32,000 nucleotides of DNA from Sinorhizobium meliloti (GTDB lineage: Bacteria > Pseudomonadota > Alphaproteobacteria > Rhizobiales > Rhizobiaceae): assembly GCF_017876815.1 (NCBI RefSeq), contig NZ_JAGIOS010000002.1:420001-452000 (forward strand). The letters run 5' to 3'. How positions within the stretch are numbered: the stretch's first letter is position 1; each line of letters starts with the position of its first letter. The notes beneath the pieces are model-generated. The model ran no database searches, was not told where the DNA came from, and was given only the letters and a program-made list of their open reading frames with translations. Shown in pieces: positions 14,035 to 32,000 of this stretch. The translations under genes were made by a program, and so were the position numbers.

Positions 14035-14072
14035 TCTTATGCTTTCAACCTTACCAGGTGGAGGCTTGGGTA

Positions 14073-14349: not shown

Positions 14350-14577
14350 TACCACCGAGCGTCCATCGAGACTGTGCAAACGCGGCGAGTTAACAGCCAA
14401 CCTCAGACGTGGCGGCTGGTGCGTTCGTCACCCTCATCCGGCCACTGATGCTCATTTGGCCCTCAAGAATTTCCATCGCCCGGCCGACCGCCCTGTAGTT
14501 GGGGCTCGCCTTACCTGTCCACTTGGCCTTCGTGAAATATCTTCGAGTCTTAGCCTCACGACTGGGGGCGTGAGCAA

Positions 14578-15969: not shown

Positions 15970-16007
15970 GGATATATTCCTCCCGGAGAGCACGCGGATC
16001 GCATTCA

Positions 16008-16032
16008 AACGATGAACTCGGGAAACTGTTCC
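16008..16032 (-). promoter_or_regulatory. EcfG/RpoE2-type general stress response promoter (GGAAC-N16-CGTT)
   Basis: The minus strand reads GGAAC (16032-16028), 16 nt, then CGTT (16011-16008). This is 39 nt upstream of ATG 15969. Confidence 0.6.
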
Positions 16033-16431
16033 CGGCACAACCCAGTGATCACAATGGAAGGTCAGTCGGGGACTATTCGCGACCCCGTGACTCGGTTTTG
16101 GATTTGCCGCTTGCGGTCTAGATCAGCTCGAGCAAGCTTCGTCCTCCCGCTCTCTGATCGTTTCGCCTCTAGAAAATCCCATGCTGGTGCCAGATTTAAA
16201 ATTGCAACTTGCGACAGTAAATCGGCGCCGGCCATTAAAACGCAGGGTAGTTTTTGATGCGCTAGCCTGATAGCTACATGACGTTCGTGAGCGTGACTGA
16301 AAGGAATGTCAGGCTCAGCGAACTATCGATGCAGCAGACGACCACGCCGCACCCTTCTGGACGACCTGACGCCGGCTCAACAGAGCGGGTTCGCCTACGC
16401 AATCCAACAACGCGCAACAGTGGAGATCGTC

Positions 16432-16767
16432 ATGACCGAAAACTCTAAGACCCCTCCCGCCAAGAAGACAATCGAAGACCCTCCGGAATATGGCGCTGCC
16501 GCCGGCGAAAAAAGCAATTCCTGGACTGGCAGGGGAAAGCCTCCCGAGCAGCCCAGCGGGGAGACCGAAGCCGGTTATCAACAAAACGGGCAGACCGCCG
16601 TAGCGCCCACCGGAACCGGTGATCAGGCGAAGAAGACGGCAGGTACAAAAGATTGGTTGGGCGGGCCGCAAAACGGAGCCGAAGCGCCTGGCTCCAAGGA
16701 GAGTGGTCCGACAGGCTCGGGGAAAGCGCAGGGCGAAGGAGCAAGAAACCCCCAAACGGGCGAGTAG
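16432..16767 (+). CDS. Low-complexity hydrophilic Gly/Pro/Lys/Glu-rich protein
   Basis: MTENSKTPPAKKTIEDPPEYGAAAGEKSNSWTGRGKPPEQ..., with GGAG 8 nt before ATG 16432. The composition resembles small stress-induced proteins. Confidence 0.55.
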   Translation: MTENSKTPPAKKTIEDPPEYGAAAGEKSNSWTGRGKPPEQPSGETEAGYQQNGQTAVAPTGTGDQAKKTAGTKDWLGGPQNGAEAPGSKESGPTGSGKAQGEGARNPQTGE

Positions 16768-16888
16768 CAGCCGACAATGCTGCGACTTCGCCGCCCTACG
16801 CCATCATGGGTGCGAGCGGCACTGATCGAGTATTCTCACGGTAACTGGGAGTGAAGCGGACACGGCACGATTTCGTGCGGAGTTACGC

Positions 16889-17873
16889 CTATTCCTCGAT
16901 ACCTTTGGGGAACTGGAACACTGCCGCCTCGTCCTCTCTCGACCTTATCCCCTTGAACGACGCATGCCGTAGCTTCCCATCGTCGGTCCAGGCGCAATAC
17001 TCGACCTCGGCGACCAGGACCGGCTCGACGAAGACGGCTCCCTTCCTCCTCAGGACGACTGCTGGAGATTTCGTCGTCATCCCCTCAAGCAGCTTCCGTA
17101 GCTCTCGCGAAAGCTCATGTGACCAGCACGTACCGCAGCCGCCGACATAGACGAGCTCCCCGGCCTTCCGCGCGGCAAGCAGAAGCCGGCCGAGATGACC
17201 AGGCACGGTTGACGGCTCGAATCCCACGATCACGAAGCTATCCCGGCGCTTGCAGGTTATCTTCTGCCACCACTCGCCCCGGCCGGATCGGTAGGGCTTC
17301 TCGGCGTGCTTGGCGATGATGCCTTCGAGGCCGTGAGCGCAGGCGACGCGGAAGAACTCGTCGCCATCAGCCTGCACCTCTTCCGATAGCCGGATGGCAC
17401 CGGCACGGCCGGCGACTATCGGGTCGAGCAGCCACCGGCGTTCGCGAAGCGGCAGTCGGCGCAGGTCCCAACCATCAACATAGAGAAGGTCGAAAGCAAA
17501 AAGATGATTTCGCGTGGATCATGCAAGCTAGGTCGCTTACCGAGCGCGCGCTGAAGCATGCCGAAATCCGACCGCCCCTGATCGTCAAGGACAACCGCCT
17601 CGTCGTCGAGGATTAAGGTTTCGTAACCAAGCTGGCGCGCCTCTGCCGCGATTGAAGCAAAGCGCTGCGTCCAGTCGTAGCCGCCGCGTGTGATTATCCG
17701 TACCCTGTCCGGCTCCACGTGAACGGCCAGACGGTAGCCGTCCCATCTCAAAGGCCCAGTCCGGCCCTTTTGGCGGCTTGTACGACTAGTATCGCCAGAC
17801 ATGGATCAACCCGCTCCGGCATCGGGTCCGGCGATGAGGTGCCGCGCGGTGTTTTCGACGATGGCTTGGCCAT
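16889..17873 (-). pseudogene. ATP-dependent DNA ligase (LigD/LigC-type ligase domain), disrupted
   Basis: Three minus-strand frames together spell a ligase. They read MAKPSSK..DPMPERVDPCLA.., then ..WDGYRLAVHVEPDRVRIITRGGYDWTQRF..LILDDEAVVLD.. The last part reads AFDLLYVDGWDLRRLPLRERR..GLEGIIAKHAEKPYRSGRGEWWQKI..DGKLRHASFKGIR. The frame breaks near 17745-17790 and at the A5/T5 run at 17498-17502. The motif I lysine codon is missing. Confidence 0.75.
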
Positions 17874-18605
17874 TAGCCCATTAACGCACAGGCCCGCGAA
17901 AAGCCGAATTGACTCTTTCGGCTGAGAGAACATATTAGGAACATTCGACGGCGATGCGGCGCCATTCCATCAATCAGGGGCGAAACTAGAATGACGCGCG
18001 TCATGCGAACACTTGCCGATGAGATAGGAACCGCGATTGAAGTCGATCTGGCGGTAATGCCTTCGCACCAAAGGCGGGCCTACGCCGGCCTCGACCAGTA
18101 CCGCCGTCCCGTTGAGGTGCGCGGCGTCCAGGAACTCGCCAAGGGCATTGCCGAATCCTTCGGGGCCTTTGCCATCTTCGATGTGGAGACGGTGCTGCGG
18201 TCTCCGGCGATCACGCCATTCGTTACGCAAACGCTCTACTCGATCCCGCTTGAACTGCGGCGGGCCGCGTGTGACCGCGACCGGCTGAAAGCAGAAAGCG
18301 CGCGCAAGGAGATGGCACGGATAATCTCGGCCGCACTTCTGGCGCGATACCATTTCGAGCCCTTGAAGCACGTCGGCGCCTCCTGCCATCCGAATTGGGA
18401 AGAGGCCTTCGAGCAGCAGTTTGGCGCCGGCCGTGGGGCGATCGACATGAGTGACGAACTGGGAGCCAAGCCCCACATCCCAAGCCGGTCCGTTTGTCCA
18501 CTACTGCGAGCACCCCGGCTGCACGAAGTGGGGCAGCTTCGGCTTCGCAGTCGGCCGCGACGAGCCGCACTGGTTCTGCTCCGAGCATCGGCCGGAATGG
18601 AATTC
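17745..18605. repeat. Diverged direct repeat, copy 1 (ligase 5' end, divergent ORF and Zn-ribbon ORF)
   Basis: Aligns by eye along its length with 22605-23450, at roughly 85-90 percent identity with small indels. Confidence 0.8.
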
Positions 18606-18614
18606 CCGCCATGA
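17991..18614 (+). CDS. Hypothetical protein (repeat-module gene A); the real C-terminus is probably near 18450
   Basis: Rhizobial codon bias, and many differences from copy 2 are synonymous, which supports this strand and frame. The last ~55 codons overlap the Zn-ribbon ORF and look non-genuine. Confidence 0.5.
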
Positions 18615-18633
18615 GGCACAGCCGCGGCATTGA
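18451..18633 (+). CDS. Small Cys/His zinc-ribbon-like protein (repeat-module gene B)
   Basis: The motif ..[36 protein letters not shown].. is conserved in copy 2 as YVHCCEHPGCTRWGGFGFTVGRSEPSWFCFEHRPEW. It has a GTG start. Confidence 0.5.
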
Positions 18634-18649
18634 CCTTCGTCGCAAGCGA

Positions 18650-18683
18650 CCCCGCCACCAACATCCCGTGGCTCGTGGCGGGG
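18650..18683 (+). terminator. Stem-loop after the Zn-ribbon ORF
   Basis: CCCCGCCAC (18650-18658) pairs with GTGGCGGGG (18675-18683). It is followed by a weakly T-rich tail. Confidence 0.4.
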
Positions 18684-18861
18684 TCTGCTCTAAATTGTTG
18701 CTGAAAAGTTTGCTCGTTACCTTTCATGCTCCAGCGCGCTGGGAGCCATGCAGTATTCGCCAAGTGGCTTTTCCCGTCCAGCAAGACGTCCGGATTAATT
18801 CGGAAGGGCGAAAGCTTGGACGTTTGTTGATTTCACGGCCACCTATTTGCTTGCCAAGATA

Positions 18862-18936
18862 CTAGTAGGCGACCTCGTGCTCCTGTTCGGAAACGAGTTC
18901 GCGGTCGCGGCCTTTCTTCTTCGGATTGTCTGCCAT
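18862..18936 (-). pseudogene. Truncated paralog of the 23980-24153 small protein
   Basis: MADNPKKKGRDRELVSEQEHEVAY then TAG. The nucleotide sequence is nearly identical to 24082-24153, and the RBS GGAGGA is retained. Confidence 0.4.
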
Positions 18937-19213
18937 GTAGTTCCTCCATCTAAGAACAGGAGGATAGGGGCGCATTGTTCATAGACAAGGTGCGAGCTAG
19001 TGGTGAACATTTCCTCGCCGCATGATCGTATCGGACCATAGTCTGGTTCGTGAGTGGCGAAGGTCTGAGACTACGCTTCCCGTGATGAAGCGAGAGGCAA
19101 GCCTTCTTGCCAGTGTCATACCTGGGGAGCATAGTGGACCATCAGCGGCACAAGACACGGGCACCGCTGACTGAGAGATCATTGCGCTTTCGCCCCAATG
19201 CGGAGGTCGCGTA

Positions 19214-19465
19214 ATGCTGCAGCACCATCAGCATCCAGATGCGATCATGCCTGATGGCGTCAGCCTTCTGGACGAAATCTTAACCCAACTCTTGACTGAG
19301 AGAGGACTTGGCCGAGACTGCGAAGATGCAGAGCATATCGCCGTAAGGCTAATTTCGCTCTTTCAATCCGGCGTACGCGATCGGGACATGCTGCGCAAAA
19401 TGGCGACCCCTGCGTTATTGGGAGAATTACGCGCTGGTCATCCTGTGTCGCCGGCATCATGTTGA
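19214..19465 (+). CDS. Hypothetical small protein
   Basis: 83-aa ORF with GGAGG 8 nt upstream of ATG 19214. Confidence 0.45.
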   Translation: MLQHHQHPDAIMPDGVSLLDEILTQLLTERGLGRDCEDAEHIAVRLISLFQSGVRDRDMLRKMATPALLGELRAGHPVSPASC

Positions 19466-19848
19466 GAAGCACGGGGTGGTCTGGCGTTAAGGAGTTGGGA
19501 AACGGCCGTTAACAGCTGCGATGAGGTAAACGGCTTTTCAATCATAATGCTGTTCGGGACACCTTTCGACGCCCAGTCCACAGCGCCGTGGCCGCTGATG
19601 TAAACGACCGGTATGTCAGGGTCGATCTCGCGGGCAACACGCGCCACTTCCCAGCCATCCGGGTATTCGCCAAACCGAATGTCGGTAACCACTCCATCGA
19701 TTGGGGCGTTTGCAGCCCTGAGAATCTCTATCGCTTTCCCGCCCCTCGTGACCGCTGTCACATGAAATCCCGCATCGGCGAGCGCGACCTCGAAATCCAT
19801 GAGCAGCAGCGCTTCATCGTCAGCGAGCAATATTGTAACCGCTTCCAT
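19438..19848 (-). CDS. Single-domain response regulator (CheY-like receiver only)
   Basis: MEAVTILLADDEALLLMDFE...GVVTDIRF...VVYISGHG...IEKPF carries the acidic pocket DD, a phospho-acceptor Asp and the conserved Lys. There is no output domain. Confidence 0.8.
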   Translation of the reverse strand: MEAVTILLADDEALLLMDFEVALADAGFHVTAVTRGGKAIEILRAANAPIDGVVTDIRFGEYPDGWEVARVAREIDPDIPVVYISGHGAVDWASKGVPNSIMIEKPFTSSQLLTAVSQLLNARPPRASQHDAGDTG

Positions 19849-19877
19849 AACTATTCCCGTACGGCTGAATCGCACTG

Positions 19878-19903
19878 AACGTGCGGGCATGGTGTATGGT
19901 TCC
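19878..19903 (-). promoter_or_regulatory. EcfG/RpoE2-type promoter (GGAAC-N17-CGTT) upstream of the response regulator
   Basis: The minus strand reads GGAAC (19903-19899), 17 nt, then CGTT (19881-19878). This is 30 nt upstream of ATG 19848. Confidence 0.6.
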
Positions 19904-20006
19904 CCAGAAACTTCATCGCTTTTTCCCACTACCGCTGTGGCCCAACCGGCGTCCAAGTCCGGAAGCTCACGCGCCGTGCCGTGTTGATCGGGCAAGGAGA
20001 CAGGCC

Positions 20007-20150
20007 ATGGCCGACGCGCAAAAGATGAAGAAGCTGACGAGAGCGGCGTAACGGAACACCAGCTGCAGCAGCGGCTCATGACCCGTCTTGGCCGCCAGCA
20101 GGCAAAGGAAGCGCTGGTGGCCGGCTGGCGACGACACTACACGCCCAACG
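20007..20150 (+). pseudogene. Degenerate member of the small-protein family (paralog of 20495-20773 and 24257-24493)
   Basis: MADAQKMKKLTRAA then a stop. Another frame continues TEHQLQQRLMTRLGRQQAKEALVAGW, homologous to ISEHELLQMLIARLHGRQAKEALGDDW. Confidence 0.35.
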
Positions 20151-20165
20151 GAATGCTGCAGCCTT

Positions 20166-20190
20166 GGAACAAAGTGGCACGAGATGCGTT
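20166..20190 (+). promoter_or_regulatory. EcfG/RpoE2-type promoter (GGAAC-N16-CGTT), sRNA module copy 1
   Basis: GGAAC at 20166-20170 and CGTT at 20187-20190. It is nearly identical to 23856-23880. Confidence 0.6.
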
Positions 20191-20195
20191 ACCGT

Positions 20196-20277
20196 GTCGC
20201 CGCGCTCTCTGCGGCACAGGTCGCCAACCTGTTTAGCAGTGCCCGTGTCGTCCCCGCGCGCGGGCATTCGCTTTTTA
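20196..20277 (+). ncRNA. Candidate GSR-dependent small RNA, copy 1 (5' end estimated)
   Basis: No start codon or RBS. Hairpins at 20199-20215 and at CAGGT-cgcca-ACCTG (20217-20231). The terminator stem is 20239-20247/20259-20267, followed by T5 at 20272-20276. Confidence 0.5.
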
Positions 20278-20494
20278 GCCCGGCCCTGGATGACGTTCCT
20301 GCAGCGGACACCGGCATCTTCGCAGCGCCGGTAATCCTTAAGAGCTAGGCGCGGAACCAACGTTATGCCAGCAAGTTGTGCACTCAAGTACGACAGCCCG
20401 GAGTGTCATGTTCTGGTCCTGAACGGGCTGTCTCGGACAGAACAAGCCCCGCCACAGCGCGGGGTTTGCTGTTCAAAAGGGAGTGTCCATTGAG

Positions 20495-20773
20495 ATGAGT
20501 GCAGAAAAGATGAGAAAGCTGATCCAGGACTGCCAGAGAGACATCGCCGCGTACCTTCCGCCGGAGAGCGGCATTTCGGAGCGCCAGCTGCTCCAGCAGT
20601 TGTCTAGCCGCCTCGACGGGCAGCAGGCGCAGGATGCGCTGGGAGATGGCTGGCAAGGCTGGTTGCCCGATGACGAAGACCCAGCCGGCGGTGACGACAT
20701 CAGCGCCGCGGCACCCACGAAGTGGTGGACCGAACCGGAGTTCTTCGGAACGATGTGGAAACTGAGGAGTTAG
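20495..20773 (+). CDS. Small acidic protein, family member B
   Basis: MSAEKMRKLIQDCQRDIAAYLPPESGISERQLLQQLSSRLDGQQAQDALGDGWQGWLPDDEDP... is a paralog of 24257-24493. Confidence 0.55.
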   Translation: MSAEKMRKLIQDCQRDIAAYLPPESGISERQLLQQLSSRLDGQQAQDALGDGWQGWLPDDEDPAGGDDISAAAPTKWWTEPEFFGTMWKLRS

Positions 20774-20894
20774 GCGGTCGCTGGCGAGTTGCGACGCTCA
20801 GCGCGAACTCATGTCGGCTTCTTAGAACTTCCCCTCCAACTGCCGGAGTCGACCTGAGCAGACAGCGCCCTACCTCGCCGGGGGCGCTGCCACT

Positions 20895-21311
20895 TCACTG
20901 CCCCAGCTGGGCGCCGTCGCGCTGGCTGGCCTCGATCCTCTGCAATATTTCTCGCATCACACGTGTATCGGTGGAAAGGCTGTTGAGCGTGTTCTCGACG
21001 GCCTTCATAGAGGTGGCCGCTTCGGCCGCCTGCTTCTCCACCGCCGAGATCCGGAGTTCGTGCTTGTCGAGCTGGCGTAGGGATACCTCCGCCGCAGTCA
21101 GGCGCTTGTCGAGGCGATCGATCGAAGAGGCATGCACTTCCTGGTTCGCACTCAGCCGCTCCCATGTAGCCCCCCAAGCGGCGACACCGCCGGCAAAGCC
21201 TATCAGGATGACGAGGGTGTTGAGGTTATATGCGAACCTCCATTTCGGCGTCGCAACTATCTGTTCGGGTTCCTGTTCAGCCAAGCCCCTGCCCTCGTAA
21301 TACAATGCCAC
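20895..21311 (-). CDS. Membrane-anchored coiled-coil protein
   Basis: 138-aa ORF with one TM (LNTLVILIGFAGGVAAWGATW) and then heptad-like sequence. It has a GTG start. A degraded paralog lies at 28455-28832. Confidence 0.55.
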   Translation of the reverse strand: MALYYEGRGLAEQEPEQIVATPKWRFAYNLNTLVILIGFAGGVAAWGATWERLSANQEVHASSIDRLDKRLTAAEVSLRQLDKHELRISAVEKQAAEAATSMKAVENTLNSLSTDTRVMREILQRIEASQRDGAQLGQ

Positions 21312-21355
21312 GGTGGAAGAGCCGGCCCTTGAGAATGAGAGCCGGCCCGTTGTCG

Positions 21356-21526
21356 TTACTGCGTGTTCTTCGGCGCGATGTAGGTTAGCAGCGCCGGCAG
21401 CCCGATCGTGAGCGCGTAGAGCGCCAGATAGCCGTACCAGGGGGTATTTTCCGGCATGAAGGGAATGCCCGCCGTGCCGGTCAGGGCGCCCCCAGCAGCG
21501 GCGGCGATTGCTTTCGAGATGTTCAT
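21356..21526 (-). CDS. Small membrane protein (56 aa), below the ORF-track cutoff
   Basis: MNISKAIAAAAGGALTGTAGIPFMPENTPWYGYLALYALTIGLPALLTYIAPKNTQ, with a strong RBS AAGGAGAG before ATG 21526. Confidence 0.5.
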   Translation of the reverse strand: MNISKAIAAAAGGALTGTAGIPFMPENTPWYGYLALYALTIGLPALLTYIAPKNTQ

Positions 21527-21538
21527 GAAGGTCTCTCC

Positions 21539-21859
21539 TTATTCTGCGGCTTTGGCTTCGCGCAGGGCGAGGGTGATTGCCGCATAGGCTTCGGCAGCCT
21601 TCACAAGCGCGGTTGCGGCGGTGACGCTGCTGGGGTTCTTGCAGACGACGTCAAGCGCCGACCAGGCCGCAGCCTCGCGGGCAATCGTTCGGGACTTGAT
21701 GTTGCCGGTGCTGGCGACGATCAGGAATGCTGAGTGAGCCGTCGCGGCCGCCGAGCAAACCTGCGGCAGATTCTTCTGGATGGCCGAATCTATCGAGCCG
21801 GTCGTCGTGCAGGAGGCGAGCGAAAGCGCCGCCACCGATGCAAAGATCAGTGAACGCAT
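21539..21859 (-). CDS. Lipoprotein
   Basis: MRSLIFASVAALSLASCTTTG carries a signal peptide with lipobox LASC. The mature part is Ala-rich and helical, with two further Cys. Confidence 0.65.
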   Translation of the reverse strand: MRSLIFASVAALSLASCTTTGSIDSAIQKNLPQVCSAAATAHSAFLIVASTGNIKSRTIAREAAAWSALDVVCKNPSSVTAATALVKAAEAYAAITLALREAKAAE

Positions 21860-21946
21860 GTCTGGTTCCTTTGATGGAGGGTTAAGATCAACGCCCTGGA
21901 GCAAGACTTGCGGGCCAGAGCTAGACAGGACTAGGTTGCCTCGCGC

Positions 21947-22374
21947 TTGACCACCATTCCAGGTATTGGTGCAATTTGCGCCACAGCAATGGAAGCCTTG
22001 GCACCCTCGGCGGCGGCCTTTTCCAAGGGCCGTGATTTTGCGGCGTGTTTCGGGCTTACGCCAAAACAGAACTCGTCCGGAGGCAAGGAGCATCTGGGAA
22101 GGACATCGAAAATGGGCAGCGAGATTTGCGGCGGCTGCTCATCATTGGAGCCACGACCGTCGTCCGTTGGGCGAGGCGACGCGGCGCGCCGGCTGGTACC
22201 TGGCTGGCAAGAATGATTCTGACGAAACCGCCAAAGCTGATTGCAGTCGCTCTGGCCAACAAATTGGCGCGTATCGCCTGGGCTCTCATGGCTCGCGGGG
22301 CGTCTACGAAGATCCGGCCCCTGGCCCTGCCTGATGCAGCAGCCAGAAGTCGCGAGACATCGGGAATGTGGTGA
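21947..22374 (+). pseudogene. IS110-family transposase, 3' remnant with an internal frameshift
   Basis: TIPGIGAICATAMEALAPSAAAFSKGRDFAACFGLTPKQNSSGGKEHLGRTSKMG in one frame. QRDLRRLLIIGATTVVRWA...KLIAVALANKLARIAWALMARG in the next frame. The N-terminal catalytic half is absent. Confidence 0.75.
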
Positions 22375-22599
22375 GGTCTAACGGCGATTATGGGCAATCG
22401 GTCAGGAACGGGATTGGATAAACCAGCAGTGGGATGAGTGCTCAGAAGCAAGTGTAGCCGATTGGGATCCGATCCACGAACTCCATAAAGGCCCGCGGCG
22501 CCTCGATCTCGCCACATGAGGCTGGACAAACGTCAGCGCCTGACCACATGCCTGTACCGAGGTAAGTTTCCGCTTGCATCTTCCGTGGCGTCCACACAC

Positions 22600-22736
22600 G
22601 TGCCCTTCACTTCGTAAGCCCAGTCCGACCCCTTCGGCGGCTTGTCGACCAGCGTCGCAAGGCAGGGATCGACACGCGCCGGCATGGGATCGATTGGAGC
22701 GATATCGCAAGCCTTCTTTGAGGATGCTTTGGCCAT
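22600..22736 (-). pseudogene. 5' fragment of a second ATP-dependent DNA ligase gene
   Basis: MAKASSKKACDIAPIDPMPARVDPCLATLVDKPPKGSDWAYEVK, after which homology ends exactly where KxDGxR should continue. It abuts the IS110 remnant side. Confidence 0.6.
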
Positions 22737-23450
22737 CTAACCATTAACACAGGACCCGGAAAAAGCCGAACTGACTCTTTTGGCTGAGAGAACATATTAG
22801 GAACATTCGGCGGCGATGCGGCGCGCCAGTCCAGGGGCGAAAGGCGCGCATCATGCGAACACTTGAAGATGAGATAGGAACCGGAATTGAAGTCGATCTT
22901 GCGGTAATGCCTTTGCACCAAAGGCGGGCCTGTGCCGGTCTCGACCAGTATCGCGGTCCCGTCGAGGTGCGCGGCGTCCACGAACTCGCTATGGGAGTTG
23001 CCGAATCCTTCGGGGTCTTTGCAATCTTCGATGTCGAGACGGTGTTGCGGTCTCCGGCAATCACACCATTCGTTACGCAGACGCTCTACTCGATCCCGCT
23101 TGAACTGCGGCGGGCCGCCTGCGACCGCGACCGACCAAAAGCAGATAGCGCGCGCAAGGAGATCGCGCGGATAATCTCGGCCGCACTGCTGGCGTGAGCC
23201 ATTGAAGCACGTCGGCGCTTCCTGCCATCCGAATTGGGAAGAGATTTTCGAGCAGCAGTTTGGCGCCGGCCGAGGAGGAGGATCAAGCGGATGAGTGACG
23301 AACATGGCGCGAACCCCACTACGAGACCGGCCGCTATGTCCATTGCTGCGAGCATCCTGGCTGCACGAGATGGGGTGGCTTTGGTTTCACCGTCGGCCGG
23401 TCGGAGCCGAGTTGGTTCTGCTTTGAGCATCGGCCCGAATGGAAAATCGC
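22605..23450. repeat. Diverged direct repeat, copy 2
   Basis: Homologous to 17745-18605. All three gene parts are damaged in this copy. Confidence 0.8.
22853..23197 (+). pseudogene. Truncated copy of repeat-module gene A
   Basis: [39 protein letters not shown]... ends at a TGA created by an ~11-nt deletion relative to copy 1. Confidence 0.5.
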
Positions 23451-23499
23451 GCAGATGCGGTCGAGCGATCAGCGGCCAGATGCAGGCCAACGGCTATAG
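23295..23499 (+). pseudogene. Frameshifted copy of the Zn-ribbon gene
   Basis: The Cys/His motif frame (..YVHCCEHPGCTRWGGFGFTVGRSEPSWFCFEHRPEW..) is separated from the GTG start by a 1-nt insertion (GTGACGAAC-A-TGG). Confidence 0.4.
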
Positions 23500-23566
23500 A
23501 GAAAGCTATATTGGTGAACATTAGCAACTGCTGTAGAATTACCGCAGCCAAACGGAGGGTGAGCAA

Positions 23567-23839
23567 TTGGACGAGCTTCGAAAAGAGGGTTCGCCCGCCG
23601 AGGAAGATAGGCGCGAGTTTTTAAAGGCTTGCGGCCGCTTCGCGGCAGTCACCCCGCCTGCAGTGACCATATTGCTGTCGACCAGCCTCACTTCTGATGC
23701 CATCGCAGCATCCGGCAGCGGCGCCTCCGGGGGAAAGGGCGGCGGCGGGAATAGTGCAAAGGGCGGCAAGGGTGGAAATGGCACGAAGGGCGGTAAAGGA
23801 GGAAATAACGCCAAAGGGAAGGCCAAACCTGGTAAATAA
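23567..23839 (+). CDS. Small secreted protein with a Tat-like signal and a Gly/Lys-rich tail
   Basis: TTG start with GGAGGG 7 nt upstream. DRREFLKACGRFAAVTPPAVTILLS is a twin-arginine signal. The tail reads GSGASGGKGGGGNSAKGGKGGNGTKGGKGGNNAKGKAKPGK. Confidence 0.55.
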   Translation: MDELRKEGSPAEEDRREFLKACGRFAAVTPPAVTILLSTSLTSDAIAASGSGASGGKGGGGNSAKGGKGGNGTKGGKGGNNAKGKAKPGK

Positions 23840-23855
23840 ATGCTGCAGGAAGCCT

Positions 23856-23880
23856 GGAACAAAGTCGCACGAGATGCGTT
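23856..23880 (+). promoter_or_regulatory. EcfG/RpoE2-type promoter (GGAAC-N16-CGTT), sRNA module copy 2
   Basis: GGAAC at 23856-23860 and CGTT at 23877-23880. Confidence 0.6.
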
Positions 23881-23885
23881 ATTCG

Positions 23886-23971
23886 TGGCGCCGCGCATTC
23901 CGCGGCACCAGGTCCCCCAACCTGTTCAGAGTGCCCGCCACCATCCCCTGGTGCGGGCACTCACTCTTTTT
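23886..23971 (+). ncRNA. Candidate GSR-dependent small RNA, copy 2 (5' end estimated)
   Basis: Hairpins at 23887-23909 and at CAGGT-ccccca-ACCTG (23909-23924). A 10-bp terminator stem at 23929-23938/23953-23962 is followed by T5 at 23967-23971. No ORF. Confidence 0.5.
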
Positions 23972-23979
23972 GATATCTT

Positions 23980-24153
23980 CTACTTGCACTGAAGGTAGTC
24001 CATCACCTTATCTCGGTTCGGCCCGGCTTCGCGGATCGCCTCAAGCGCCTTCTGCCGCGTCACCCTCGCCGTTCGCATGAGGTACGCGACCTCGTGCTCC
24101 TGTTCGGACACCAGCTCGCGGTCGCGGCCTCTCTTCTTCGGATTATCTGCCAT
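23980..24153 (-). CDS. Small protein; resembles DUF3606-type proteins from memory
   Basis: MADNPKKRGRDRELVSEQEHEVAYLMRTARVTRQKALEAIREAGPNRDKVMDYLQCK, with RBS GGAGGA before ATG 24153. Confidence 0.6.
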   Translation of the reverse strand: MADNPKKRGRDRELVSEQEHEVAYLMRTARVTRQKALEAIREAGPNRDKVMDYLQCK

Positions 24154-24210
24154 GCTTTCCTCCATCAACATGGATAAAGGATAGGAGCCGACCGGCCGTC
24201 GGCAAGGACT

Positions 24211-24235
24211 GGAACCTCATGCCCGGTGACGTGTT
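24211..24235 (+). promoter_or_regulatory. Near-consensus GSR promoter (GGAAC-N16-TGTT)
   Basis: GGAAC at 24211-24215 and TGTT at 24232-24235, 22 nt before ATG 24257. A homologous degenerate version (GGAAG-N16-TGTT) lies at 19961-19985. Confidence 0.4.
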
Positions 24236-24256
24236 CACCTGCCGAGGAGATGGACC

Positions 24257-24493
24257 ATGGCCGGCAAAGAGAAGATGAAGCAGCTCATTTGGGACTGCCA
24301 GAAGGACATTGCCGCCGACCCGCCGCCGGAGAGCGGCATTTCAGAGCACGAGCTGCTACAGATGCTCATCGCCCGTCTCCATGGTCGCCAGGCGAAGGAA
24401 GCGCTGGGTGATGATTGGCAAGGTTGGGGGCCGGATGACGATGGCGGCGGCGACGGCGGTAGCCCCGTTCGTCAAGACCGAGAGATGGCCTGA
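24257..24493 (+). CDS. Small acidic protein, family member C
   Basis: MAGKEKMKQLIWDCQKDIAADPPPESGISEHELLQMLIARLHGRQAKEALGDDWQGWGPDDDGGG..., with RBS GAGGAG at 24244-24249. Confidence 0.6.
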   Translation: MAGKEKMKQLIWDCQKDIAADPPPESGISEHELLQMLIARLHGRQAKEALGDDWQGWGPDDDGGGDGGSPVRQDREMA

Positions 24494-24658
24494 CACAAAT
24501 AGAGCTGCAGCGGGGGACTGCTGCAGCTCCGATCGCGACGTTTGCCGTCACATAGCTGGGGCGAATTGCCCTGTTCCATTCAAGGGAACCGCTTCGAACG
24601 TCGCTTGCGGATATTTTACTCTCAGCAGAAACGGAATCAAGGGAAAGCGCCTGATTGG

Positions 24659-25091
24659 TCAGCGCCGGTTGTAGCTTATCTCGCGCGCCGCTATCTGGAA
24701 TTCCAACAGACTACCTCGCATCGAGATCCTCTGGTCGAGCTGCGGTTTCCCCAGAAGAGACGCCTTTGTTGTTCCATCGAAGTCGTTGAGACGCGTCTTC
24801 GATGTGGCCCGCGTGTCCAACCGGAACTCGACGAACTTGTTCATAAAGATCCCGGCGACGAAAGCCGCCATAGTCGTGACCGCCCATATGATAGCTGTCA
24901 CCAGAGACGTTCTGCTGGACGTTGAAATTGTGCTGGATGGTAAGGAAGCCGACTAGCAGGTGAAACGCAGTTGCAGCACGGCCGGCGCTCTTTGCCACCG
25001 CGTTACGGGTCGACGTCGTTCGTACACTCCGAAAAAGAGGTCGCCAGGCTGAACCGAGACGCAAAACTTCGGAATTCTCTTTTTGAGGCAT
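24659..25091 (-). other. Two overlapping minus-strand ORFs, possibly one frameshifted two-TM membrane protein
   Basis: Frame Y gives ...AATAFHLLVGFLTIQHNFNVQQNVSG. Frame X continues TAIIWAVTTMAAFVAGIFMNKFVEF... to the stop at 24659. This stretch has lower GC, and the coding status is uncertain. Confidence 0.25.
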
Positions 25092-25440
25092 TTCTTGCCC
25101 GAATGTGGCAGGCGCTTAACCACTTAACCAGAACGGCACACAAAGGTTCTTGAAGCCACCGCCCGTGGCCCGTCGCATTACAGACAAACCCATAAGGGGT
25201 TTGGGATGGCCCCCAGCCCTACACTCCATCTCGATGGAAGGCCCAGGCCCCTCGCCTCGGGCTTTTGTCTGCGGGCTAATCTGCTGGCTCGGTCACCCTC
25301 GACTTTCGCTAGCAAGTATCCCAACAAGTGGTCTAGTCCACCTGTCCGAATTGTGCGCTTTGTTTTTAAGCCTTAAAAGATCCGCTAGTCACTTTGAGCC
25401 TTCTCACGAATTACCGCTCCGCGAAATCTAGAGGGAAGAA

Positions 25441-26604
25441 ATGATCCTCAATGGAACTAGCCTGTCTGACGTCATCCGTGGCTTTCTTAGCGACGACCAG
25501 ATATGGGGATATGCAGGCGACGATTATCTCTACGGCGGCGTCGGCAATGACAGGATCTTTGGCGGCGATGGCAATGACTATATCGTCGGCGGCGTCGGCG
25601 ATGACTATGCCGAGGGCGGCGAGGGTAACGATCGGCTCGACGGCGGCCTCGGGAACGATGCGTTCATGGGTGGAATAGGGAACGACATCTTTGACGGCGG
25701 GGAAGGCAACGACGTTCTCGATGGCGGCCATGGCCATGACCAGATGCTGGGCGGTCGGGGACACGACAAGATTTTTGGTGGCGCGGGAGAAGATTACATC
25801 GACGCAGACGAGGGCGACGACATTATTTTTGCTGGGTCCGGAGACGACGGCTTCAACAATCGGGTGAACCCCGCAACGGGCAAGCTGACGCAGCAGGCGG
25901 TAGGTGGTGGCGCCGGCAACGATACCATCTATGGCGAAGGGGGCAACGACGCTCTAAAGGGCCAATCCGGAAACGACCGGGTCTATGGCGGCATCGGCGA
26001 CGACATCGTCGATGGCGGCAACGGAAACAACTATCTCGATGGCGGCGACGGCAACGATGTGTTGGATTCGGAGGGCGGAAGCGACGAAGCCCATGGTGGC
26101 AGCGGCAATGACAGAATCTCGGTGGGGGCCGGTAACGACCGGGCCTTTGGGGATGACGGAGATGACATCCTGACCAGCGGGGCCGGCGACGATTATCTGA
26201 GCGGCGGCATCCATCAGGATCGCCTTTTTGGCGGCACTGGCAATGACACACTGCGGGGTGACGCAGGCCGAGACGTTCTCTCAGGCGACGCGGGAAGCGA
26301 CATACTCTGGGGCGGATCCGATTCCGACCGCTTTGTCTTCAAGGGCTTAGGGGCACTATCTGGCCAGGATACCGTCATGGATTTTCAGGATGGCCTGGAC
26401 TTGCTTGCCATCGAGACGCTCGGGGTCAAGCAGTACTCCAACTCCGGCGCCGCAGGTACGATCTACGCCTACGACGCCACCGGCGGCGACGTGCTGGTGA
26501 AGGGCTACAATTCTGCCGGGAACGCGTTCTCCATCCTGGTGGACGATCCCAACGGCAGTCTCACCGCTGCCAACTTCTCGAGGGCGGACTTCGTTTTCGC
26601 ATAG
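25441..26604 (+). CDS. RTX-type calcium-binding repeat protein (probable type I secretion substrate)
   Basis: More than 20 GGxGxD nonapeptide repeats (GGVGNDRIFGGDGNDYIVGGVGDDY...). There is no N-terminal signal peptide. The C-terminal non-repeat domain ends in DFVFA. Confidence 0.88.
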   Translation: MILNGTSLSDVIRGFLSDDQIWGYAGDDYLYGGVGNDRIFGGDGNDYIVGGVGDDYAEGGEGNDRLDGGLGNDAFMGGIGNDIFDGGEGNDVLDGGHGHDQMLGGRGHDKIFGGAGEDYIDADEGDDIIFAGSGDDGFNNRVNPATGKLTQQAVGGGAGNDTIYGEGGNDALKGQSGNDRVYGGIGDDIVDGGNGNNYLDGGDGNDVLDSEGGSDEAHGGSGNDRISVGAGNDRAFGDDGDDILTSGAGDDYLSGGIHQDRLFGGTGNDTLRGDAGRDVLSGDAGSDILWGGSDSDRFVFKGLGALSGQDTVMDFQDGLDLLAIETLGVKQYSNSGAAGTIYAYDATGGDVLVKGYNSAGNAFSILVDDPNGSLTAANFSRADFVFA

Positions 26605-26925
26605 GCCCGGGGCGATGGCCTAACTGCAGTCGGCAGTCCCATCCACCCGTACCGACCATCGGCTGCGGATAGGTGCTGCACATCCCCCCTCATATCCGAG
26701 CTGGTTAAGCTCGATGAGGAGCCGCGGCTTGCGTTTTAGGTCTGCAAGTCTCGTGTCCATGTCGGCCGAACCTTAGTCCGGCTCATCGATGGCAAAGGTT
26801 CTTAGGCGGAGCGCTGAGCGAAATCATCGAGGCATATTGGAGTTGTCACCCGGAGCGGCATTCTCGTCTGCCGCTCGTGTGAGTGATGCCTTAGAGTGGA
26901 GTTGCCCCCAAAAGACCGGACATGC

Positions 26926-27756
26926 TCAGGTTTGAGATTGCGAGCTGATGAACTCGCGCGGCGATTGATATCCTAAGGCGCTGTGCGGGTGAAGATTATT
27001 GTAATGCTCGAACCAGAACGGCAGTTGCGCCATGACGGTTTCGGCATCCGGGGTGGGGTTCACCGCGACGTAATCGCGCTTGAAGGTTTTGACGAAGGCC
27101 TCGGCCATGCCGTTCGATTGCGGGCTGCGCACCGGCGTCGTGCACGGTTCCATGCCGATGTCGCGGAGCAAGGACGCGGTGTCCTTGGCGATGAAGCAGG
27201 AGCCGTTGTCGGTGAGCCATTCGATGGGTTCGGACAGCATGTTGATGCGGCCGAAGCGGTTCTCCACTGCTGTGATCACGAGGTCCTGCACGTCCTGGCT
27301 CTTGATGCCCTCGGTGGTGGCGACATGGGCGATTGCTTCACGGTCGCAGCAGTCGAGGGCGAAGGCGACCCGGACCTTCTCCTTGTTGTCGCAGCCGATC
27401 TCGAAGCCGTCGGAGCACCATCTGATGTTCGAACGTTCGACAGCGACCTGACCCTCGTGGAGACGATTATCGACCGCTCCGGTGTGGCGCACCAATAGCA
27501 GATTGTGCAGCTTCATCACCCGGTAGACGCGCTTGGCATTTGGCCACGAACGCCCCAGTTTCCGGGCATTCCGACGCAGGATGGCATGGACACGCCGATA
27601 GCCGTAGGTGGGCATATCGGCGATGACGGCCTTGATGTCCTCCACCAGCTCGCGATCAGGTAGTGGCGGGCGTCCTCTGGCTCTGGAAGGGGAGCCTGCG
27701 GCACGCGCGGCGATATTCGAGCGAGCGACACCCAAAGTTTCGCAAACGCTCTTCAT
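26926..27756 (-). CDS. IS transposase OrfB (DDE integrase core)
   Basis: PTYGYRRVHAILRR, NIRWCSDGFEI, ALDCCDRE, WLTDNGSCF and HPHSALGYQSPREF closely parallel IS2 InsD. The frame is open upstream to the A-run at 27796-27803. Confidence 0.85.
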   Translation of the reverse strand: MKSVCETLGVARSNIAARAAGSPSRARGRPPLPDRELVEDIKAVIADMPTYGYRRVHAILRRNARKLGRSWPNAKRVYRVMKLHNLLLVRHTGAVDNRLHEGQVAVERSNIRWCSDGFEIGCDNKEKVRVAFALDCCDREAIAHVATTEGIKSQDVQDLVITAVENRFGRINMLSEPIEWLTDNGSCFIAKDTASLLRDIGMEPCTTPVRSPQSNGMAEAFVKTFKRDYVAVNPTPDAETVMAQLPFWFEHYNNLHPHSALGYQSPREFISSQSQT

Positions 27757-28168
27757 CCCAAAATCCCCCTCGGAAGAGAGAGCGAGCGCAACAGATTTTT
27801 TTTGGGCTACCGGCGATTTCGAGGGCTTCCTTCAGGATTTCGCTCTCCATCGTCTTCTTGCCCAACAGTCGTTGCAACTCCTTCACCTGCGCCTGAAGCG
27901 CCCGGTATTCGGATGCCGGAACAACCTCCTCTTCGGCGGCCGTCGCCGTCAGTGCCCCTTGGGACGCCAGCTTGCGCCAGGCGAACAACTGGTTCGGCTG
28001 GATGCCGTGCCGACGCGCGACGATGCTCACCGTCGCGTCCGCCTCATAGGTCTCGTGGATGATCGCCAGCTTCTCTGCCGTGCTCCAGCGCCGCCGACGT
28101 TCCGGCCCGGAGAGGACTTCCATCTTAAAATTGCTGCTAGTCATATTACCAACATTACTCCTACCCAC
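27656..28168 (-). CDS. IS transposase OrfA (HTH), with an abnormal 3' extension
   Basis: MEVLSGPERRRRWSTAEKLAIIHETYEADATVSIVARRHGIQPNQLFAWRK...LQRLLGKKTMESEILKEALE parallels IS2 InsC. The start is uncertain (28168, 28142 or 28123). Confidence 0.8.
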   Translation of the reverse strand: MGRSNVGNMTSSNFKMEVLSGPERRRRWSTAEKLAIIHETYEADATVSIVARRHGIQPNQLFAWRKLASQGALTATAAEEEVVPASEYRALQAQVKELQRLLGKKTMESEILKEALEIAGSPKKICCARSLFRGGFWDEERLRNFGCRSLEYRRACRRLPFQSQRTPATT

Positions 28169-28454
28169 TTAGCTAAGTGGGGGAGCATGTCCGGGCCTTT
28201 CGGGGGCTAATTCATAGAGCTCCCCGCGTCGTCCCTTCTGGGAAGCTCTGAGGTGCGCACGCTTTACAGGACTTTCAAGGATGCGAGACCGAGACGATCA
28301 CAGCCTACCGGAAGAAAGCGCATCCACTGACGAGAAACCCGCGCCAGACACTCCAAAGAGAACGATTCCATATCGGCGGAAGTCGGTTGGCGTTAACCAC
28401 GAACGCGATACCGCCCGCCTGAAAACGTTGGAATATCTCGGCAGACGGTGGCTG

Positions 28455-28832
28455 TCACACCACTAGCAGTGCCGGCATTAACGCCGGAGCTGCGCGCCGC
28501 TGACTGGCCTCGATCCGCTGCAGGGTCTCGCGCATCACACGCGTAACGATGGAAAGGCTGTTGAGCGTGTTCTCGACAGCCTTCATTGAGGTAGCCGCTT
28601 CGGCCGCCTGCTTCTCCACCGCCGATATTCGGCTCGTGATTATCGATCTACCGGAGGGAGACGTCCGTCAGGCGCTTGTCGAGGCAATCGATGAAATTTG
28701 CCTGCGAATCCTGATTGGCATTCACCCTCTGCCGTGTCGCGCGCCCCACGCTACGAGGCCGCAGCCAAAGCCGAACAGGATCACCAGCGTGTTGACGTCA
28801 TATTCAAACCTCCATTCCAGAGTTGCGACCAT
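28455..28832 (-). pseudogene. Degraded paralog of 20895-21311
   Basis: MVATLEWRFEYDVNTLVILFGFGCGLVAWGA.. then a stop, a frame change, an in-frame TAG, and then ISAVEKQAAEAATSMKAVENTLNSLS... in a third frame. Confidence 0.55.
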
Positions 28833-29089
28833 TTTTCCGGTTTCCTGTGTTTCGGCCAATGCCCTACATGGACGATAGCGATGCGAAATGGGCCGGCCGA
28901 AACGAACCGGCTTCTGACCTCTCGGAAATCGCGGCGCACCGCGCGGTTTACAATTTGCTGGACTTTGCAGCGCAGCTCGCAGGCCGCCGAGAATCTAAAG
29001 GCTCTGAACGCAAGACCGATTGAGCCCATTTCGCTTTTGGTCGAAACCGAAAGATCAGGCTGACGCAAGCCTTCCTGGATGAATGTGTG

Positions 29090-29900
29090 GCTGTGGCTTC
29101 AGCTCCAAGACGCAGGGGGATACCCTCTTCCTCCCCGTAAGGACGAGCCCGTTAACACTGATAGCTGAATCGGTGGAGGATCTGATCTGTGGTTTGCTTC
29201 TGGTTAGCAGCCGCCTCATTCATGGCGGCCAGAGGCTCGTTGCTAACCGCAGAAGGCGACGAGCCTCGCCCAATAAAAGCCGCACCTCGTATCATGCGTA
29301 CCGCTAACCCGCTCCTCGGCCCCGGATCGCGGGTCTTTTGTGTTTTGGAAAGCAAGCCCCTTCTCATCCCATCCCCGAACATGGGATTGGTTCGAGGACG
29401 ACGGGATACATCGCCCGCCGCCTCGCTGGTGCTGCCTGCAGGGTTAGCCAAGCTTGCGACCACACCGACGTATGCGCCTGCATAAGAGGCCTTATCGCTG
29501 CCGGCGCCGCCATCGATCTATCTGCTTGGATGGAGGTGCCTCAAAATGGATTTTGGGCTGGCCGATTCTACCCGATATCACCTGCATCGGGTCGCTATGG
29601 GCGAGGTACGCCCCAATCGTTTCAATGCGCCCTCCCCGGTCAGGCATCTTGTGCCAGGTGAAAAGCGCTTCGTCGGAAAGCGGATTGGCAAAACCCTGAT
29701 TGAGATCGACCATGATTTTCCAGATACCGCGCTCTTGCGGCTGAATATGTTGTCATCGAAATTTTGGCCAATCGGCCTGCTGCCCAGACGATCGCCGAAT
29801 TCCTATTCGGCTCGCAGTGGAGCAACCGTCGAACGCAATTCGTTGATAAGGCTTCGCCCTGTTCGTGTTCTAACGGTCGAGATCCCAAACGTCCGGATTT
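29090..29900 (-). pseudogene. Fic/DOC-family (DUF4172-Fic type) gene remnant, multiply frameshifted
   Basis: MVDLNQGFANPLSDEALFTWHKM...DPMQVISGRIGQPKIHFEAPPS matches the region preceding the Fic core. A decayed core motif NPMFGDGMRRG (versus HPFxDGNGR) lies in another frame. Confidence 0.5.
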
Positions 29901-30158
29901 CGTGCGAAGTACTCATCAGCATTTCTACGAGGACCCGGACTTTGCGAGCGGGGTGCCGACCCGGCGGTCGGACGACATACGCGCCTGCCGAAGGTGGGGA
30001 TAGCGTCTCATAATCGGAACGAGCGTGCCGGAGGCCACATATTCGTGTGTGATGCAATCGGGGAGCCAGGCGATGCCGAGTCGGGCCGCAACCAGAAGGA
30101 ACAGCAAATTGCGTCCAGGCAACGTCGCCCGCTGGCGCATGTCTCCCGTGAAACCCAT
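29803..30158 (-). pseudogene. LysR-family regulator, C-terminal fragment only, frameshifted
   Basis: LLFLLVAARLGIAWLPDCITHEYVASGTLVPIM in one frame and AYVVRPPGRHPARKVRVLVEML in another. The N-terminal HTH is missing. Confidence 0.4.
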
Positions 30159-30831
30159 TGCCGTCCATAGCGGCGGACAAAGGAGGTCTTGATGACCCTC
30201 GTAACGGACTTGATTCGCTTCTTCGTCCTCAAGACTCGGTCCTCGTTCTGATCGACCACCAGCCCTATCAGCTCACAAACGTGAACAGCCACGAACCGCA
30301 GATGCTGGTCAACAATGCGGCGGCTCTGGCGAAGGCTGCCAAGGCCTTCGCCGTGCCCACGATTCTGACGAGCGTGATCGCTGATCGGGGCGGCCGCATC
30401 TTCCCCCAGATCACTGACGTGTTTCCCGGCCAAGAGGTGATCGATCGGACGTTCATCCACACCTGGCAGGATGAGAAGGTCGTGGACGCGGTCAAGGCCA
30501 CCGGCCGCAAGCAGCTCATCCTCGCGGTGGACCGAGATATGCGTTGCGCCGGCGATCCAGGCGCTCGGCGAAGGTTGGGACGTGACGGTTGTCACCGATG
30601 CGTCCGGCGGCACTTCGGTCGAGGCCCACGAGGTCGCCATCCAGCGCATGATCACGGCTGGCGCGAACATGATGACCTGGCTGGCGGTGGCTGCGGAATG
30701 GCAGCGCGGCTGGCCCCGGACATGCCGCCGAGCTTTCGGAGGTGCTCGTGCAGCATGCCGCCGGCAGCGGCATCGCCTTCCTTTGGGAGCAGCAGCTGCT
30801 CAACACGCCGGTGCCAAAGGACGCGGGCTGA
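30158..30831 (+). pseudogene. Isochorismatase-family hydrolase (YcaC-like) with two frame changes
   Basis: DSVLVLIDHQPYQL...ATGRKQLILA in frame 1. TEICVAPAIQALGEGWDVTVVTDASGGTSVEAHEVAIQRMITAGANMMTW in frame 2. AAELSEVLVQHAAGSGIAFLWEQQLLNTPVPKDAG* in frame 3. Confidence 0.6.
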
Positions 30832-30945
30832 TCTGAGCGGGGATGACGAGATTCTTGAACGACGCTTTGTGAGCCGATCGTTTGTCGAGCCTCGTCATCC
30901 CCATTCTGCTTCGCTCCGTATCTTTCAAGAGATTTGCCCCGTACC

Positions 30946-30971
30946 GGAACAAAGCGGAATGCGATTCGGTT
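30946..30971 (+). promoter_or_regulatory. Relaxed GSR-like promoter (GGAAC-N17-GGTT) upstream of ku
   Basis: GGAACAAAG at 30946-30954 shares the extended -35 of the sRNA promoters, and GGTT lies at 30968-30971, 30 nt before ATG 31001. The same relaxed pattern occurs by chance at 2870-2895, so this is weak on its own. Confidence 0.35.
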
Positions 30972-31000
30972 GACTCCCCTGGATATGCAGGGAGTTAGCC

Positions 31001-31885: not shown

Positions 31886-31896
31886 GGAGGTGAACG

Positions 31897-32000
31897 ATGG
31901 CGCCCCCACGCCCATACTGGAAAGGCTACCTGAAGCTCTCGCTCGTCACCTGCCCCGTCTCGATGATGCCGGCGACCAGCGAGTCCGAGAAGGTCCGCTT
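31897..32000 (+). CDS. ku: Second Ku paralog, N-terminal part (runs off the window)
   Basis: MAPPRPYWKGYLKLSLVTCPVSMMPATSESEKVR, with RBS GGGAGG at 31885-31890. Confidence 0.8.
   Translation, partial: MAPPRPYWKGYLKLSLVTCPVSMMPATSESEKVR

Follow-up and report, generated by a model that had tools for sequence, protein, structure and literature searches.

A strain-variable interval of Sinorhizobium meliloti pSymB carries a cluster of predicted RpoE2-type stress promoters

We analyzed a stretch of 32,000 nucleotides from Sinorhizobium meliloti (contig NZ_JAGIOS010000002.1, positions 420,001 to 452,000 of the forward strand; hereafter the window), which is part of the megaplasmid pSymB. The 17.8-kb interval between a tRNA-Arg(CCG) gene and the Ku gene ku3, called here the island for short, is very probably a strain-variable mosaic of accessory cassettes, many of them carrying their own promoter for RpoE2, an EcfG-type sigma factor of the general stress response. 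Seven sites in it are supported by sequence comparison as genuine RpoE2/EcfG promoters, those preceding a membrane protein gene (16007), a receiver-only regulator gene (19877) and two copies of a small RNA (sRNA; 20166 and 23856) being predicted ones. The assignment is based on the presence of the motif, its enrichment and geometry, its conservation in orthologues and the identity or paralogy of sites with promoters that were mapped by experiment in strain Rm1021; from these we infer activity in this strain, the roles of the products and the reason for the clustering. An earlier reading of the same DNA, made from its letters alone (the sequence-only reading), had proposed the island as a hotspot of stress promoters, and the motif that it had used, GGAAC-N16/17-CGTT, is indeed the promoter published for RpoE2 (ECF15/EcfG) of S. 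meliloti.

Stresses such as heat, salt, starvation or desiccation activate the PhyR-type proteins RsiB1/2, which sequester the anti-sigma factors RsiA1/2 and thereby release RpoE2. The RpoE2 holoenzyme binds GGAAC at -35 and (G/C)GTT at -10, with a spacing of 16-17 nt, and transcription starts 7-9 nt downstream.

Promoter motif enrichment in the island

A pattern search for the exact motif found four sites in the window against 0.70 expected from dinucleotide shuffles, and none of 100 shuffles reached four. These sites, at 16008-16032(-), 19878-19903(-), 20166-20190(+) and 23856-23880(+), are the ones listed in the sequence-only reading. All of them lie downstream of the tRNA-Arg gene and, as had also been claimed for the core, positions 1-13216 contain no exact match. 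The random expectation had been put at 0.5, slightly below the shuffle-based value, and the excess over chance was borne out. The count of four stands but the independence of the sites does not: those at 20166 and 23856 differ at one spacer base and lie within a duplicated block (repeat D12), so that a single event was counted twice and three independent sites are left. In ~141 kb of other pSymB sequence the exact motif occurs once, as compared with four times in the 17.8-kb island, and the looser pattern GGAAC-N17/18-GTT occurs about nine times in ~128 kb of control sequence, as compared with eight times in the island. The enrichment is real, about 7-fold for the loose pattern and about 30-fold for the exact motif, and is somewhat lower once the duplicate is collapsed.

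We also scored the sequences with a weight matrix derived from 92 RpoE2 promoters that have a mapped transcription start site (TSS) or are supported by 5' RACE (Tables S19 and S20 of Schlueter et al. 2013, PMC3616915). The threshold of 13.4 bits was the 10th percentile of these training promoters, whose 25th percentile and median are 14.9 and 16.6 bits. Eight sites in the island reached the threshold and none did in positions 1-16000 (Table 1), whereas 200 shuffles of the 17.8-kb island gave 0.88 matches on average and never more than 5. When the match at 20747 is set aside, the remaining seven score from 15.9 to 19.7 bits, which is the range of experimentally supported RpoE2 promoters. The background scan covered the window core and two 50-kb stretches of Rm1021 (the non-island part of the second). 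Rm1021 pSymB 370-420 kb and 1470-1520 kb served as control sequence; this locus is absent from both, and the Ku encoded there is only 40% identical. One 50-kb pSymB control gave a single matrix match, which is the published SMb20704 promoter, and the non-island parts of the second stretch also gave one. The sequence-only reading would have taken this background from the full replicon; the scan of the window core and the Rm1021 stretches shows a lower density outside the island.

Within the control sequence, the loose pattern GGAAC-N17/18-GTT was matched four times, once exactly, inside 2 kb at ~413.1-414.9 kb of Rm1021 pSymB. None of the four appears in the available portion of the published RpoE2 tables, and they may form a further small cluster or be due to chance.

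Among the near matches that had been added to the four exact sites, those at 24211, 20353 and 30946 score 15.9-16.1 bits (about the 25th to 50th percentile of the training set) and are retained, while the one at 19961 fails, with no matrix match at 10 bits or above. The placement of the sites is as the sequence-only reading had described it, 20-40 nt before a start codon or at the head of a short terminated transcript. The CGTT of the first site ends 38 nt from the ATG at 15969 and the second site ends 29 nt from the ATG at 19848; the third and fourth sites each head a unit of about 80 nt that is closed by a GC-rich hairpin and a U-tract and folds much more stably than its shuffled versions (z = -3.6 and -7.9). 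Considering all seven promoters, the -10 element is found 20-38 nt from a start codon, ~115 nt from it by way of a conserved leader, or directly before a terminated unit of ~80 nt. The proposal that much of the island is wired into the stress response holds for about eight of some eighteen transcription units and not for nearly all of them.

Table 1. Features of the window, with coordinates in the 32,000-nt stretch
Feature	Position	Strand	Description
tRNA-Arg(CCG)	13140-13216	+	ARAGORN; Rfam tRNA 68.8 bits; left edge of variable region
'PhnA-like' membrane protein, 300 aa	15067-15969	-	open reading frame (ORF); Shine-Dalgarno GGGAGGA; hydrophobic N- and C-terminal segments
RpoE2-type promoter	16007-16032	-	GGAACAG-N13-TCGTTT; exact motif; 16.5 bits; predicted TSS ~15999
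ATP-dependent DNA ligase pseudogene	16889-17802	-	two ORFs; Pfam DNA_ligase_A_M and DNA_ligase_A_C
Single-domain response regulator, 136 aa	19438-19848	-	Pfam Response_reg 1.9e-12
RpoE2-type promoter	19877-19903	-	GGAACCA-N14-ACGTTC; exact motif; 16.5 bits; predicted TSS ~19869
Decayed paralogue	19961-20051	+	GGAAGCT-N13-GTGTTG before 14-codon truncated acidic-protein gene (20007-20051); repeat D3
RpoE2-type promoter, sRNA copy a	20166-20191	+	GGAACAA-N13-GCGTTA; exact motif; 19.7 bits, above 75th percentile
sRNA copy a (candidate), ~78 nt	20199-20276	+	fold with terminator, z = -3.6; middle loop CGCCAA
RpoE2 promoter (predicted)	20353-20378	+	GGAACCA-N13-AAGTTG; 15.9 bits; predicted TSS ~20386
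Structured leader, SmelA021 homologue	20386-20494	+	
Small acidic protein, 92 aa	20495-20773	+	
Intragenic matrix match	20747-20772	+	GGAACGA-N13-GAGTTA; 14.6 bits
ORF, 90 aa	23567-23839	+	twin-arginine-like signal RREFLK; Gly/Lys-rich tail with GGKGGNG repeats
RpoE2-type promoter, sRNA copy b	23856-23881	+	GGAACAA-N13-GCGTTA; exact motif; 19.7 bits
sRNA copy b (candidate), ~83 nt	23889-23971	+	three hairpins, middle loop CCCCCAA, then terminator; z = -7.9
DUF3606 protein, 57 aa	23980-24153	-	Pfam DUF3606 6.5e-15; SMb21683 orthologue, 98% identical
RpoE2-type promoter	24211-24236	+	GGAACCT-N13-GTGTTC; 16.1 bits; predicted TSS ~24244
Small acidic protein, 78 aa	24257-24493	+	paralogue of 20495-20773; 97% identical to Rm1021
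RTX-type calcium-binding repeat protein, 387 aa	25441-26604	+	nine HemolysinCabind stretches; orthologue of Rm1021 SMb21402
IS3-family element	26896-28214	- (ORFs)	HTH_Tnp_1 and rve; 23-nt inverted ends at 26905-26927 and 28183-28205
ku3-ku4 operon promoter	30946-30972	+	GGAACAA-N14-CGGTTG; 15.9 bits; TSS 30981 by homology
ku3	31001-31885	+	Pfam Ku 8e-48; Lys-rich C-terminal tail; first gene of operon

Strain variability of the interval

The region matches pSymB of S. meliloti ml47 at 99% identity, strain Rm41 also shares the island, and Sinorhizobium accounts for 206 of 291 plasmid records with a match. To Rm1021 pSymB, the core as far as the tRNA gene, which is the sole tRNA in the window, is 99% identical, and this near-identity stops at position 13222. 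From 13223 to ~22600 the sequence is either a 75-85% mosaic with respect to Rm1021 or absent from it, and from 22982 to 32000 it is again 97-98% identical, save for the insertion of the IS3-family element. Profile searches of the window found no integrase, the only match of this kind being the IS3-family transposase, and a search that allowed up to three mismatches did not find the tRNA 3' end a second time. With neither integrase nor tRNA 3' repeat, the interval is a tRNA-adjacent variable region and no demonstrable integrative island. Of the "tRNA-linked island" of the sequence-only reading, the adjacency to the tRNA holds up.

Promoters with counterparts in Rm1021

The site preceding ku3 is base for base the promoter of its Rm1021 counterpart SMb21406, GGAACAA-AGCGGAATGCGATT-CGGTTG, whose TSS was mapped 9 nt downstream (PMC3616915 Table S19). 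In strain ml47 a second Ku gene, ku4, comes next. With a lacZ fusion to the ku3 promoter, heat induction was lost in an rpoE2 mutant (Dupuy 2019, PMC6379672). Ku had been named as a possible member of the stress-controlled set, and the identity of its promoter with an rpoE2-dependent one in Rm1021 agrees with that suggestion.

Two of the seven promoters precede small acidic proteins. The 92-aa gene and its leader show ~93% DNA identity with SMa0450 of Rm1021 pSymA and its leader SmelA021, and the promoter at 20353 differs from that of SMa0450 at two spacer bases. The TSS of SMa0450 has been mapped in Rm1021 (PMC3616915), and this gene showed a log2 change of 3.0-3.3 (8- to 10-fold up) on rpoE2 overexpression. 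Between promoter and start codon, the leader has a terminator-like hairpin (GCCCCGCCACAGCGCGGGGTTTGCTGTTC) that is conserved in Rm1021 SmelA021 and may permit attenuation or give rise to a leader-derived sRNA.

The promoter at 24211 is identical in Rm1021, and judging from gene order and strand the 78-aa gene behind it is most likely SMb21400, which responded to rpoE2 overexpression with a log2 of 0.75-0.93 (P ~1e-12; PMC6180224). The neighboring DUF3606 gene corresponds to SMb21683, which responded with a log2 of 1.4-1.6 yet has RpoH-type promoters. This fits indirect control via rpoH2, and the DUF3606 gene is probably RpoE2-responsive indirectly, through RpoH2.

The site at 19961 is a recognizable paralogue of the 24211 promoter in which the -35 element carries a C-to-G change at a near-invariant position (GGAAG for GGAAC). 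As the acidic-protein gene behind it is truncated, it may be taken as an internal control, which suggests that loss of the gene is followed by decay of the motif.

Membrane protein and regulator promoters

The label "PhnA-like" of the membrane protein comes from the annotation of strain ml47. The protein has no Pfam or NCBIfam match, and its family is widespread on alphaproteobacterial plasmids. The promoter motif is kept in seven of eight Rhizobiaceae orthologues whose flanking sequences cannot be aligned. GGAAC-N15/16-GTT was found at the same position in orthologues from Ensifer, Pararhizobium, S. glycinis, S. medicae, Agrobacterium and an alphaproteobacterial metagenome-assembled genome (MAG), whereas the -10 element is weakened in the Rhizobium leguminosarum orthologue. 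Those of Paracoccus and Bradyrhizobium have no motif at the aligned position, and the footprint is therefore claimed for the Rhizobiaceae and the one alphaproteobacterial MAG.

The gene for this membrane protein stands at the site of an apparent cassette swap. Window positions 15969-16160 correspond to ~1318100-1318290 of Rm1021 pSymB, ~135 nt beyond a shared block, and where the PhnA-like gene is found here, Rm1021 has SMb20908, an unrelated small membrane protein. Each of the two genes has its own RpoE2-type promoter, an arrangement that hints at an exchange of promoter-bearing cassettes at this site.

As for the regulator, GGAAC and CGTT are invariant upstream of all six homologues and stand at a fixed distance from the ATG, with little else in common. 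The homologues compared come from S. meliloti pSymA, S. medicae, S. fredii, Sinorhizobium K101 and Rhizobium CC1099, and the proteins are 58-74% identical; the plasmid search places the S. medicae orthologue at 74%. The gene is accessory, since copies of at least 95% identity occur in only 16 plasmid records. A search of the PDB returned the structural-genomics entry 2RDM as the only close match (E = 1.9e-56) and generic receivers otherwise, and a relationship to SdrG/FAT-GUY regulators, which we had considered, was dropped on this account. A feedback role for the regulator is a conjecture.

A multi-copy small RNA family

The units headed by the promoters at 20166 and 23856 belong to a family of which 11 copies were aligned, taken from S. 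meliloti (pSymB, pSymA and chromosome), S. medicae, S. kummerowiae, S. fredii and Sinorhizobium sp. CCBAU 05631. The -35 and -10 elements are kept throughout and the spacer is variable; the promoter of copy b is identical at 1331186-1331211 of Rm1021 pSymB. The consensus of the 11 copies consists of a 5' hairpin, a near-invariant CAGGU-CCCCCA-ACCUG hairpin and a terminator. The copies differ by indels of 1-4 nt, not multiples of three, which shows them to be non-coding. Covariation was detected in one of 20 pairs; it is almost nil because the copies are so alike, and the structure is supported by thermodynamics and conservation. A search of the whole window with Rfam (E <= 1) matched the tRNA and no family for these units, and the family was not found among 52 named, modelled trans-sRNAs of S. 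meliloti. With their own promoter, an intrinsic terminator and non-coding conservation, these candidates have the attributes of trans-acting small RNAs.

In the window as well as in Rm1021 and S. medicae pSMED03, the sRNA adjoins a DUF3606 gene on the opposite strand. The window and Rm1021 then have a divergent gene for a small acidic protein, and the next ORF of pSMED03 is annotated as hypothetical only. Taken from gene arrangement, this suggests that the sRNA, the DUF3606 gene and the acidic-protein gene form a recurring cassette, and the pair of a basic and an acidic small protein might act with the sRNA as one module. On its other side, copy b has the 90-aa ORF, which stops 16 nt before the sRNA promoter. 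Like the acidic proteins, this Gly/Lys-rich product has no Pfam or NCBIfam match. Its TTG start is preceded, 26 nt upstream, by a weak RpoE2-like match (10.1 bits).

Model and alternative explanations

Under the proposed model, stress would switch on seven units of the island together, namely the membrane protein, the receiver-only regulator, the two sRNA copies, the two acidic proteins and ku3-ku4, and the DUF3606 gene would then be activated indirectly, via RpoH2. The clustering itself would have arisen by duplication and swapping of cassettes that carry their own promoters.

Several observations weigh against this interpretation. Two of the four exact sites are one duplicated unit. The match at 20747 is intragenic, in a coding sequence whose conservation is explained by the protein, and no matching published TSS was found; it is probably a false positive and not a promoter. 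The induction of SMb21400 is weak (log2 about 0.8-0.9). The genes for the membrane protein and the regulator were not found by tblastn in the Rm1021 island, so that the support for their promoters consists of motif and footprint. Concerning the sRNA, copy a, with its altered loop, may be diverging or decaying, and the available part of the published data yielded no mapped TSS for the Rm1021 copies at pSymB ~1331218 and pSymA ~1017540. The array had no probe on the sRNA strand because in Rm1021 an ORF, SMb21399, which is probably spurious, is annotated on the opposite one. Finally, RpoE2 promoters are clustered elsewhere on pSymB too, as with the six found within 1372-1381 kb, so that the hotspot, though genuine, is not unique to the island.

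A different account of the cluster is that it results mainly from segmental duplication, one or two promoter cassettes having been copied within the island so that the number of sites reflects paralogy and not selection for stress control of many genes. Besides the sRNA promoters of repeat D12, the blocks 17893-18937 and 22755-24154 are 78-93% paralogous, and the three acidic-protein genes, including the truncated one, are paralogues. However, at least five unrelated promoters are left when the paralogues are collapsed (membrane protein, regulator, sRNA, the two acidic proteins as one class, and ku3), and those of the two intact acidic-protein genes differ in sequence. Moreover, orthologues from outside the island have kept each of these five classes independently, and the pseudogene copy has lost its -35 element, as expected with selection on the intact copies. 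Duplication as the main cause is thus improbable, although it has contributed to the count.

The promoters could instead be real ones that are served by another sigma factor, RpoE5 or RpoE6, acting downstream of RpoE2 or in parallel. S. meliloti has two ECF15 sigma factors, of which the second paralogue, RpoE5, is itself an RpoE2 target; the RpoE6 consensus partly resembles that of ECF15, and a promoter cannot be attributed to one of the paralogues from its sequence alone. Nevertheless, overexpression in Rm1021 changed one gene in the case of RpoE5 versus 320 for RpoE2, and the induction of the ku3 promoter depends on rpoE2, which makes control by another sigma factor very unlikely. That the motifs are chance or compositional matches devoid of promoter function is hardly credible: only nine bases of the core motif are specified, relaxed versions of it occur about three times per 50 kb of control sequence and the match at 20747 is probably of that kind, but the shuffle and real-sequence backgrounds are far below the observed count, the sites are consistently oriented and spaced with respect to start codons or sRNA 5' ends, the cross-species footprints hold and some sites are identical to mapped promoters.

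Going beyond the mosaic of promoter-carrying cassettes favored here, it is conceivable, though we regard it as doubtful, that the interval is a recombination hotspot in which small stress cassettes with promoters of their own undergo duplication, decay and exchange between replicons and strains, and that the conserved sRNA with three hairpins and a C-rich loop represents a new arm of the general stress response that acts post-transcriptionally. This idea derives from the recurring trio of sRNA, DUF3606 and acidic-protein genes and from the finding of SMb20908 and the PhnA-like gene at one breakpoint. If it were true, the EcfG regulon would grow by modules that arrive with their promoter attached.

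Other features of the island

The gene for the RTX-type protein has no stress promoter motif upstream. The IS3-family element, an insertion relative to Rm1021, is missing from ml47 as judged by a coverage gap, and a 99% identical copy is found elsewhere in the island of Rm1021. The ATP-dependent DNA ligase gene is split over two ORFs and is thus a frameshifted pseudogene; its counterpart segment in Rm1021 is 83% identical, and it is 13 kb away from ku3-ku4.

Comparison with known systems

Several members of the island are already known as parts of the stress regulon; the membrane protein, the regulator and the uncharacterized sRNA family with a general stress response promoter are new. They leave the current understanding of this response unchanged and indicate that the accessory genome of S. 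meliloti extends the RpoE2 regulon past the Rm1021 map, as an example of the expansion of a sigma-factor regulon via promoter-carrying cassettes. The membrane protein family, the 2RDM-like regulator and the multi-copy sRNA are candidates for studies of stress tolerance and desiccation in rhizobial inoculants.

For the published RpoE2 regulon, 76-108 promoters with start sites are on record, and 200-320 genes respond. The island resembles it in the -35/-10 consensus, the spacing, the bias to pSymB and the presence of small hypothetical proteins and sRNAs, and the promoters of ku3 and of the SMa0450-like and SMb21400-like genes are identical or near-identical to published members. The Rm1021 version of the island has four published RpoE2 start sites. 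The two versions differ in that the PhnA-like membrane protein and the regulator are found only here, whereas SmelB126/127 and SMb20908 of Rm1021 are missing here.

In comparison with the stress-inducible Ku3-Ku4 pathway of non-homologous end joining (PMC6379672), the promoter, the 20-nt 5' untranslated region and the arrangement of the ku3-ku4 operon are identical. There is nothing new at ku3 itself, and the difference lies in the ligase gene of the island, which here is a frameshifted pseudogene. The regulator is like the EcfG-controlled single-domain regulators SdrG and MrrA and SMa0113/0114 of S. meliloti in being receiver-only and having an EcfG promoter, and as in the SdrG/MrrA class its acidic pocket, phospho-accepting Asp and Lys are intact. 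It shows, however, no specific sequence relationship to SdrG-type regulators, and 2RDM is itself of unknown function. The sRNA candidates share with the RpoE2-dependent S. meliloti sRNAs SmelB126/SMb_sRNA_432, SmelA060 and SMc_sRNA_259 an EcfG-type promoter of their own, an intrinsic terminator, the occurrence in multiple copies, the megaplasmid location and the lack of a known function, but constitute a different sequence family, distinguished by three hairpins with a CCCCCAA loop.

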